This document shows positions 4,178 through 4,925 of a stretch of 5,489 nt of DNA, piece by piece (within the stretch, counting starts at the first letter, position 1; the number at the start of each line of letters is the position of its first letter). Source of the stretch: a virus (taxonomy: Duplodnaviria > Heunggongvirae > Uroviricota > Caudoviricetes); IMG/VR virus record IMGVR_UViG_2545824719_000020; one strand, 5' to 3'. Under the pieces are notes generated by a model. It was given only the letters and a program-made list of their open reading frames with translations. It did not search any database and was not told the DNA's origin. Both the position numbers and the translations under genes were made by a program.

Positions 4178-4361
4178 TGCTGTTCTCCGATAATACCAAG
4201 TTCAAGAAGGGCAATTCTGGAAAGTATGGAATTATCATTGAGAAGATAAGGTTCATATTTTCTCATCTTAATGGCATCTTCAGTAAATACCGGGTTACTG
4301 ATAGGACACCAATTTCAAAACAACCTTCAGACGTATTAACGTTTGGTAATAACGTTTCCAT
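4174..4361 (-). pseudogene. dicB: dicB (cell-division inhibitor) homolog disrupted by a -1 frameshift after codon 19
   Basis: ATG 4361-4359 with GAGGA at 4369-4373. Frame 1 encodes METLLPNVNTSEGCFEIGV (matches the DicB N-terminus MKTLLPNVNTSEGCFEIGV) then reads LSVTRYLLKMPLR and stops at 4265-4263. From 4305 the -1 frame encodes (P)ISNPVFTEDAIKMRKYEPYLLNDNSILSRIALLELGIIGEQQ and stops at TGA 4176-4174. Restoring one nt near 4304/4305 gives a 62-codon ORF, the length of K-12 DicB (…GVTISNPVFTEDAI…). Confidence 0.7.
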
Positions 4362-4376
4362 TATCGCGTCCTCAAC

Positions 4377-4528
4377 AATGAATTTTGTGATGCGGTGCCT
4401 GGTGCCTCCAGGTGACGTTAACCAGTTAACAATTAACGCCGGATACAGAGAATCCACCCATAACACTGTTTTTGGTTTTAACTGTTCCGCGTGCGCTCAG
4501 CCGCATTCACCACATCACAAAATTCACT
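4377..4528 (-). promoter_or_regulatory. Long-range 21-bp inverted repeat (RNA duplex) bracketing the DicF-terminator to dicB-RBS spacer
   Basis: Plus 4377-4397 (AATGAATTTTGTGATGCGGTG) is the reverse complement of plus 4508-4528 (CACCACATCACAAAATTCACT). In the minus-strand transcript this gives 19 Watson-Crick pairs plus 2 G-U pairs, contiguous. One arm starts 2 nt after the DicF U-tract; the other ends 3 nt before the dicB Shine-Dalgarno. Confidence 0.45.
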
Positions 4529-4530
4529 TT

Positions 4531-4573
4531 AAAAAGGGCGGCAGAGCAGTCACGGAGTAAAACTGATACCGCC
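4531..4573 (-). terminator. Intrinsic-terminator-like hairpin plus U5 tract forming the DicF 3' end
   Basis: GGCGG (4573-4569) can pair with CCGCC near the 3' end (about 4541-4537), enclosing an internally paired loop (CAG/CTG), followed by TTTTT at 4535-4531 on the minus strand. Read-through would be needed to express dicB and downstream genes. Confidence 0.5.
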
Positions 4574-4588
4574 AAACGTCACCAGAAA
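4536..4588 (-). ncRNA. dicF: DicF small regulatory RNA (53-nt mature form; ftsZ-targeting sRNA of the dicB operon)
   Basis: Minus-strand sequence 4588 to 4536 is TTTCTGGTGACGTTTGGCGGTATCAGTTTTACTCCGTGACTGCTCTGCCGCCC, followed by TTTTT. This is identical over 53 nt to the DicF sequence as I remember it. Same strand and position (between ydfC and dicB) as in Qin. Confidence 0.92.
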
Positions 4589-4925
4589 ATTGATAACAGA
4601 GGGCGTTGCAGCGGAGTTGTCACTTAAGCGTATGGTCAACCTGACAACCCGGTGTCCTCAACGGGGAAGGAATACCCCCGCCATACTTACCGCCGCGCCA
4701 TTTCGCGGAGTGCCACAACCGGAAGCGCACGGTCGAACTAAATTTAACGACACCGTACAGAGAGACCAATTTCGCCGTGCGCTTTCGCTTTATGCCCTGA
4801 CTTTTCAGGGACATATCCTTTCAGTAAACTGTCAGTGCCGGATGTTCACCCGTGTCCGGCGCACGCACTCCACCTGACCCGTGGAGAACTCCTTAATTAC
4901 CAACCTTAGCTTCGTTGGTTAGCTA
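4589..4925 (-). other. Hairpin-rich untranslated spacer between ydfC and DicF (DicF precursor/processing region)
   Basis: No convincing ORF on either strand. Perfect short inverted repeats at 4693-4708 (CCGCG/CGCGG), 4792-4814 (CCCTGA/TCAGGG plus 3 bp after a 1-nt bulge), 4837-4860 (GCCGGA/TCCGGC), 4868-4886 (CTCCAC/GTGGAG) and 4899-4919 (ACCAAC/GTTGGT). Confidence 0.55.

Follow-up and report, generated by a model that had tools for sequence, protein, structure and literature searches.

How the transcript that carries both the small RNA DicF and the message of dicB is divided into its products, and what part the spacer between the two genes takes in this, is the question raised by the locus considered here. 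The window (the whole stretch of viral DNA that was analysed, 5,489 nt) represents the left arm of a lambdoid prophage, and on its minus strand small early genes are followed by DicF, dicB, a ydfD-like ORF, an exonuclease-like ORF of 823 aa, xis and int; the region is 99% identical to K-12. The original prediction had seen in the spacer a long-range RNA duplex of 21 bp. The elements of the locus are the following.

4536..4588, minus strand: DicF sRNA, 53 nt, with its terminator stem-loop (Rfam RF00039 at 4587..4536, 76.7 bits, E 3e-16)
4529..4535, minus strand: U5 of the DicF terminator (4535-4531) and AA, read from the sequence; termination here is according to the literature
4508..4528, minus strand: 5' arm of the duplex (pairing, fold, inverted-repeat search)
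4517..4528, minus strand: outer 12-nt extension of the 5' arm, AGUGAAUUUUGU, pairing with 4388..4377 (long-stem subfamily only)
4387..4518, minus strand: structured RNA domain of the STnc100 family (Rfam RF02076 match, our model R1, covariation)
4377..4397, minus strand: 3' arm of the duplex (pairing, inverted-repeat search; BLAST match boundaries at 4377)
4377..4388, minus strand: outer 12-nt extension of the 3' arm, ACAAAAUUCAUU, pairing with 4528..4517
4359..4373, minus strand: Shine-Dalgarno sequence GAGGA (4373-4369) and AUG (4361-4359) of dicB, both beyond the helix
4174..4361, minus strand: dicB coding region, frameshifted, its open frame stopping at 4263

The pairing was found exactly where it had been predicted: on the minus strand, 4528..4508 (the 5' arm, AGUGAAUUUUGUGAUGUGGUG) pairs contiguously with 4397..4377 (the 3' arm, CACCGCAUCACAAAAUUCAUU) through 19 Watson-Crick and 2 G-U pairs. 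These 21 pairs close a loop of 110 nt, and mismatches flank both ends of the helix. In the inverted-repeat search the duplex is the longest repeat of the window (I1), and in RNA folding, which had been proposed as a check, the whole helix is present in both the MFE and the centroid folds of 4340-4600 (minus strand; z = -5.8, from 200 shuffles). When the window was shuffled 100 times with its dinucleotides preserved, the longest uninterrupted helix of comparable span had 12-18 bp (median 14), as against the 21 bp observed, and RNA of the plus strand gives a helix of only 14 bp at the same positions, because the G-U pairs turn into A-C. The excess over the shuffles, together with the 14 bp of the other strand, makes the helix non-random and specific to the strand of the dicF/dicB transcript. 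It is hardly credible that the repeat is a chance one, or that it works as an inverted repeat of the DNA (a protein-binding or recombination site). The feature does form an inverted repeat in DNA; however, 21 bp lies beyond all 100 shuffles, the G-U wobbles provide this length on the transcribed strand only, and the substitutions between genera described below keep the RNA pairing, G-U intermediates included. Both readings were rejected on these grounds. We consider the duplex to be genuine, a well-supported but largely known processing signal.

As to the position of the arms, the 5' arm had been placed immediately after the DicF U-tract, which is nearly right: AA (4530-4529) intervenes, and the arm starts 2 nt after U5 (4535-4531). 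Since it begins past the U-tract of the terminator, the duplex is possible in read-through transcripts only. The 3' arm ends, as predicted, 3 nt (GUU) before the dicB Shine-Dalgarno GAGGA, with the AUG following at 4361. A terminator scan of 4200-4900 detected no terminator, the DicF stem being interrupted and its loop above the limit of the scan; the call of the DicF terminator rests on the Rfam structure and the literature, the scan being blind to a terminator of this shape. The same scan of 4200-4900 detected no promoter-like site on the minus strand, so that nothing suggests that the domain or dicB has an internal promoter of its own.

The dicB gene of the window is frameshifted by the absence of an A between 4305 and 4304 (GGTGTC-CTATCAG versus GGTGTCACTATCAG in K-12, IMT5155 and all the closest E. 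coli matches), and its open frame, ending at 4263 (minus strand), has 32 aa. The C-terminal half of dicB is a divergent allele too, ...TEDAIKMRKYEPYLLNDNSILSRIALLELGIIGEQQ in the restored frame. The stem and the RNA domain are intact despite the frameshift.

What the original prediction took for a loop belongs to the STnc100 family of RNAs and is both structured and conserved; its P1 closing stem consists of the inner 9 bp of the duplex. The 21-bp duplex as a whole is the long stem at the base of this phage RNA domain, which is conserved and lies between DicF and dicB. Alignment and RNAalifold delimit the following elements in it.

4516..4508 / 4397..4389, minus strand: P1 inner stem, GAUGYGGUG / CACYGCAUC
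4504-4489, minus strand: P2
4488-4441, minus strand: variable region
4440-4414, minus strand: P3, GGCGUUAAUU...GGUUAACGUC
4412-4398, minus strand: P4, CCUGG-AGGCA-CCAGG, with compensatory changes

Two smaller repeats that had been pointed out within the loop are real and belong to these elements: CCUGG/CCAGG is hairpin P4, and GUUAACugGUUAAC lies in the loop and the 3' strand of hairpin P3.

The arguments for the family assignment come from searches in both directions. A permissive Rfam scan matched RF02076 (STnc100) to 4329-4538 (minus strand) over positions 1-206 of the 206 of the model with E 3e-7 and 38.7 bits, a score below the curated gathering threshold of 47 bits, and in the Rfam consensus of STnc100 a long-range helix likewise closes the structure where the duplex does so here. 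A covariance model of our own, R1, was built from an alignment of the subfamily and run on Enterobacterales genomes fetched by a pattern scan, where it found about 105 copies; it scores the domain of the window at 142.7 bits and also finds many copies that lie above the STnc100 threshold of Rfam, e.g., in the loci L080, L125 and L132. In the alignment of the 105 copies 94% of the cells are paired, versus 73% after shuffling and about 40% when the partners are slid, and double changes occur in 27 of the 33 pairs, nine of them among the ten pairs of P1; fitting the alignment to R1 biases it towards the structure, but the differences are wide nonetheless. The window copy and the family thus share a secondary structure supported by covariation, and each is detected by the model of the other.

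The window copy has in common with the STnc100 / PasD prophage sRNAs of Salmonella, EHEC and EPEC the P1 closing stem, the GGUGAAU junction, P2, P3 and a P4 of the form CCNGG-AGGCA-CCNGG. In contrast to them, it lies inside an mRNA leader and lacks the 3' terminator hairpin of a stand-alone STnc100 unit: model positions of about 170-206, where this hairpin is located, align poorly in the window, onto the RBS and the coding sequence of dicB. Its closing stem has 21 bp as against 6-11 bp in STnc100 / PasD, and its score is 38.7 bits as against the gathering 47. Members of the family elsewhere are expressed, Hfq-dependent sRNAs. No link between STnc100 and the dicF-dicB spacer was found in the searchable literature.

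An ORF that starts at GTG 4466 (window 4263-4466, minus strand) is in frame with dicB and spans P3, P4 and the 3' arm, and the title of Cam et al. (1988) speaks of an "in-phase internal start", which matches it. A protein-coding reading of the loop was nevertheless rejected: the loops of the homologs are 101, 102, 110, 111, 115, 116, 118, 119 and 123 nt long, i.e., they differ by non-multiples of three, and this variation argues that the upstream part of the ORF is non-coding.

Homologs were gathered from phage and E. coli collections. The stretch conserved in them begins just past the terminator, ends with the last base of the 3' arm and stands ahead of differing genes, namely dicB (Qin type), kilR (Rac type, Stx phages) or the gene of a Rha-family regulator; BLAST similarity to the kil-type and rha-type prophages ends exactly at window position 4377, the end of the 3' arm. 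The length of the closing helix was measured by walking outward from the innermost P1 pair, in place of duplex folding of the 44-nt flanks, which over-calls pairing in every copy. Its distribution is bimodal: most copies have 6-11 bp, 11 of the 105 reach 21 bp or more with no more than one defect, and only four fall at 12-20 bp. The outer 12 bp are found only in copies that lie within leaders of phage early-left mRNAs, upstream of dicB, kil, rha and similar genes; the long-stem set consists of the dicB, kil and rha leaders and of copies from Lelliottia, Scandinavium and Pseudescherichia, all three without DicF ahead. A terminator-like hairpin within 120 nt downstream accompanies none of the 12 long-stem copies versus 47 of the 93 short-stem ones (Fisher p = 0.0005), a figure to be read as indicative only, because the long-stem copies are related to one another and the test overstates their independence. 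The contrast indicates that short-stem copies often stand alone and long-stem copies are embedded in mRNA leaders, and it would fit stand-alone units on the one hand and embedded units in need of endonucleolytic release on the other.

The outer extension is kept by compensatory changes, which had been proposed as a further check, in Escherichia, Shigella, Lelliottia, Scandinavium and Pseudescherichia. The Lelliottia copy has 22 contiguous pairs, although the outer half is of another sequence, with six double substitutions; the Scandinavium copy also has 22 pairs, and in its inner part an A-U pair has become G-C; changes from U-A to C-G in the outer part occur in Pseudescherichia and in an IMG/VR contig, and the kil-type copies have one bulged A and changes from U-A to U-G. 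Across eight distinct sequences and 21 positions there is a single non-canonical cell; in a few further natural variants the stem contains one A-C mismatch. Another 107 copies, with 29 different pairs of arms, came from scanning viral contigs; they include recombinants in which the DicF terminator is joined to kil or the Rac-type terminator to rha. The comparison of sequences shows that selection maintains the pairing of the long stem.

Copies of the domain were also met in other surroundings. The RNA core with a short stem (8-12 bp) is kept in P1-family phages (D6, P7 and an IncY plasmid; L011, L012 and L006, about 697-825), where it stands after tRNA genes and directly ahead of tciA/terB; a shorter core is conserved in a Klebsiella phage as well. 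The "dicF-like region" annotated in P1 resembles window 4612-4699, which is upstream of DicF and not DicF itself. Tandem arrays of three to six STnc100-family domains, spaced by about 110-250 nt, occur in genomes of Pantoea, Enterobacter and Superficieibacter and in a Pantoea plasmid (L125 6398-7836; L083 949-1991; L132 2764-7097; L119 135-1621; L080 6367-7004; L056 3113-4044); some adjoin genes of tRNA, isrI, isrK or C4 RNA, and no discussion of such arrays was found in the literature searched. The reverse order, with a short-stem STnc100-like copy upstream of a DicF-like terminator (…UGCUGUGUGUAGUC-UUGGCGG…), is present in L017 1443-1570 and in 24 IMG/VR contigs; as both arrangements occur, the STnc100-like and the DicF-like modules have been repeatedly linked in both orders. 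Finally, the record of the 254-kb Aeromonas jumbo-phage AP1 (MT713136.1, H18) contains at 249906-250152 a copy of window 4352-4598 that is 98% identical, bears no annotation and covers the DicF terminator, the stem and the domain. For a segment of an E. coli prophage this is an odd host, and the copy may reflect contamination or recent transfer.

The supposition that the duplex is an RNase III substrate and a processing site of DicF is supported and, in effect, already published. Formation of a 72-nt DicF from the full-length operon transcript depends on RNase III according to Faubladier (1990), as cited by Balasubramanian (2016, PMC5069750) and by a review of 2022 (PMC9438474). Counted from the 5' end of DicF (4588 or 4587), 72 nt lead to 4517 or 4516, which is nucleotide 12 or 13 of the 5' arm and is uncertain by a few nucleotides because it is back-calculated from the quoted length. 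In the RNA-seq study of Gordon (2017), Table S1 gives an RNase III-dependent position, 1649470, which is described as "dicF-dicB intergenic" and marked as known; it has 26 reads in the rnc mutant versus 0 and 0 in the wild type. The zero wild-type reads argue, if anything, against accumulation of the middle domain under those conditions. By the dicF and dicB coordinates of MG1655 that we assume (K-12 locus L001), position 1649470 presumably lies in the loop, about 7 nt beyond the 5' arm, and not in the arm itself. Ragunathan (2023, PMC10448788) describes an upstream RNase III site only, that of the 5' end of a 190-nt species, and does not mention the downstream one. As for the substrate, the RNase III cleft takes about 22 bp, and by the rule derived in vivo the two pairs between the staggered cuts usually include G-C (Altuvia, 2018); the helix, with its 21 contiguous pairs, has the length of an RNase III site (about 20-22 bp without large defects), and the pairs between the cuts as modelled here would be G-C and U-A, in line with this preference.

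In the region of the upstream site there is the only other long inverted repeat of the window, I2 (4717-4790, minus strand; 16 nt, 88% complementary, loop of 42 nt), some 190 nt before the 3' end of DicF. For the 190-nt DicF precursor, the published 5' end that depends on RNase III would be expected at this place (about 4722, in the 3' arm of I2), and the fold of this region alone is unexceptional (z = -0.8).

It is, in our opinion, quite probable that the extended P1 of the STnc100-family domain forms upon read-through and is cut by RNase III in the middle, giving the 72-nt DicF and the dicB-ydfD mRNA. The domain sits between the DicF terminator and the dicB RBS, and reading through the terminator would complete the stem, which at about 21-22 bp would fill the binding cleft of RNase III; cleavage near its middle would sever the operon transcript. 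The cut of the 5' arm is expected between 4517 and 4516 (+/-1), as the 3' end of the 72-nt DicF, i.e., at ...UUUUGU/G within AGUGAAUUUUGUGAUG, and its partner, from the geometry of RNase III (2-nt 3' overhang), near 4387/4386. The upstream piece would keep the terminator hairpin and, after cleavage by RNase E at the 5' end, become the 72-nt DicF, which may be trimmed further. The middle piece would be the STnc100-like domain of about 130 nt, released with a stem of 9 bp, and the downstream piece the dicB-ydfD mRNA with a 5' monophosphate and a leader of about 25 nt.

The long stem could instead serve structural insulation only, locking the STnc100-like fold and shielding it from the flanking mRNA, with RNase III cleavage being incidental. 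Embedded RNA domains often need a stronger closing stem, and the inner 9 bp are the ordinary P1 of the family, with covariation. Still, we find this improbable: the helix length leaps from about 6-11 bp to one of about 21-22 bp, intermediates being nearly absent, the longer value matches the cleft of about 22 bp, and an RNase III-dependent end has been reported which the quoted length would put in this stem.

Another possibility, to our mind rather unlikely, is that the cut serves mainly to initiate decay of the RNA on one of its sides (of the toxic dicB/kil mRNA or of the spacer) and not to make a product, as a decay entry site or in the manner of sib retroregulation. A 5'-monophosphate end favours attack by RNase E, which counts for this reading, as does the toxicity to the host of the downstream genes dicB and kil. 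Moreover, the 5' arm lies 2 nt past the U-tract and the substrate exists only in terminator read-through RNA, as in lambda sib, the regulator of int, and the spacer has reads in the rnc mutant alone (Gordon, 2017). However, in lambda sib it is the hairpin of the terminator that is extended, and the mRNA upstream of it undergoes degradation, whereas the dicF-dicB stem is separate and the terminator stays intact on DicF. The upstream fragment is the stable DicF and keeps its terminator hairpin, and 3'-to-5' retroregulation of the upstream genes is therefore unlikely; the upstream ydfA bands, furthermore, are lost and not gained in the rnc mutant (Ragunathan, 2023, PMC10448788). Decay of this kind is compatible with division of the transcript by RNase III and not exclusive of it.

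The original prediction also considered that read-through of the DicF terminator might be coupled to translation through occlusion or exposure of the dicB RBS, and this part found no support. In such coupling the stem, or the adjacent tail of the terminator, would hide the RBS in the read-through RNA, and cleavage by RNase III or unfolding would expose it. The 3' end of the long-stem helix does lie always 14-22 nt ahead of the start codon in the six homologs compared, and the C/U-rich tail of the terminator pairs weakly with GAGG in the MFE fold. Accessibility was estimated from partition functions for full-length and modelled cut RNAs in two ways, the six homologs being compared. The mean unpaired probability of the Shine-Dalgarno would rise modestly after the modelled cut, from 0.04 to 0.15 in the window and from 0.16 to 0.31 in K-12, and with other transcript ends from 0.20 to 0.72; but the sign flips between homologs (0.75 to 0.35 for kilR of Rac), the predictions vary with the transcript boundaries, and in one setting the cut RNA would even sequester the AUG. 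Such estimates, depending on the transcript ends and differing among homologs, were not counted for or against coupling. In one setting the freed outer 3' arm forms a different hairpin with the AUG region; this hairpin is not conserved in Lelliottia or Pseudescherichia and was likewise discarded. The Shine-Dalgarno and the AUG lie 3 and 15 nt past the helix end, so that neither is paired in the RNase III helix as the Shine-Dalgarno and/or the start codon are in control of the lambda N / T7 0.3 type, and recombination has joined the same stem to unrelated genes (kil, rha and others) with differing RBS sequences. We regard coupling through the RBS as unlikely, and any effect of the cut on dicB is an inference.

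Returning to processing by RNase III as the preferred reading, we note that the published processing of the dicBF transcript (Faubladier, 1990, as quoted in PMC5069750 and PMC9438474) concerns the same locus and the same enzyme, and the length given puts the end in the 5' arm; it is from this literature that the RNase III dependence and the 72-nt length are taken. The stalks of rRNA operons and the intercistronic sites of T7 early mRNA are likewise long flanking or intercistronic helices cut on both strands, which separates the products; in the dicF-dicB case, by contrast, release of the bracketed domain of about 130 nt is what we would predict. That RNase III acts downstream of DicF belongs to the textbook knowledge of this operon, and the STnc100 family is a curated one. 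Two findings seem to be new, as far as the searchable literature goes: that the dicF-dicB spacer is an STnc100-family domain, and that there is a long-stem subfamily embedded in leaders. Both are refinements rather than a new kind of system, and the practical gain is modest, as a known processing site is explained and a testable by-product is proposed.

DicF and DicB are model prophage inhibitors of cell division, and the partition of the operon transcript sets the amount of each. Placing the downstream RNase III event, known for long, on a specific 21-bp stem provides exact targets for mutagenesis. The stem closes a member of a widespread and functionally obscure family of phage RNAs, which suggests that the spacer is more than linker RNA. 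We tentatively put forward, as a possibility well short of a probable one, that the long stem is a conserved RNase III excision stalk, by which an STnc100-family RNA of about 130 nt would be released from antiterminated early-left transcripts, and that the terminator together with the stalked RNA would be a mobile cassette brought by recombination to a place immediately before host-killing genes (dicB, kil, rha-type). If this were true, a single read-through event would yield three products, namely DicF (or an RNA like it), an RNA of the STnc100 type and a toxin mRNA whose leader has been trimmed, and a second riboregulator, not recognised so far, would be encoded in the dicF-dicB spacer.
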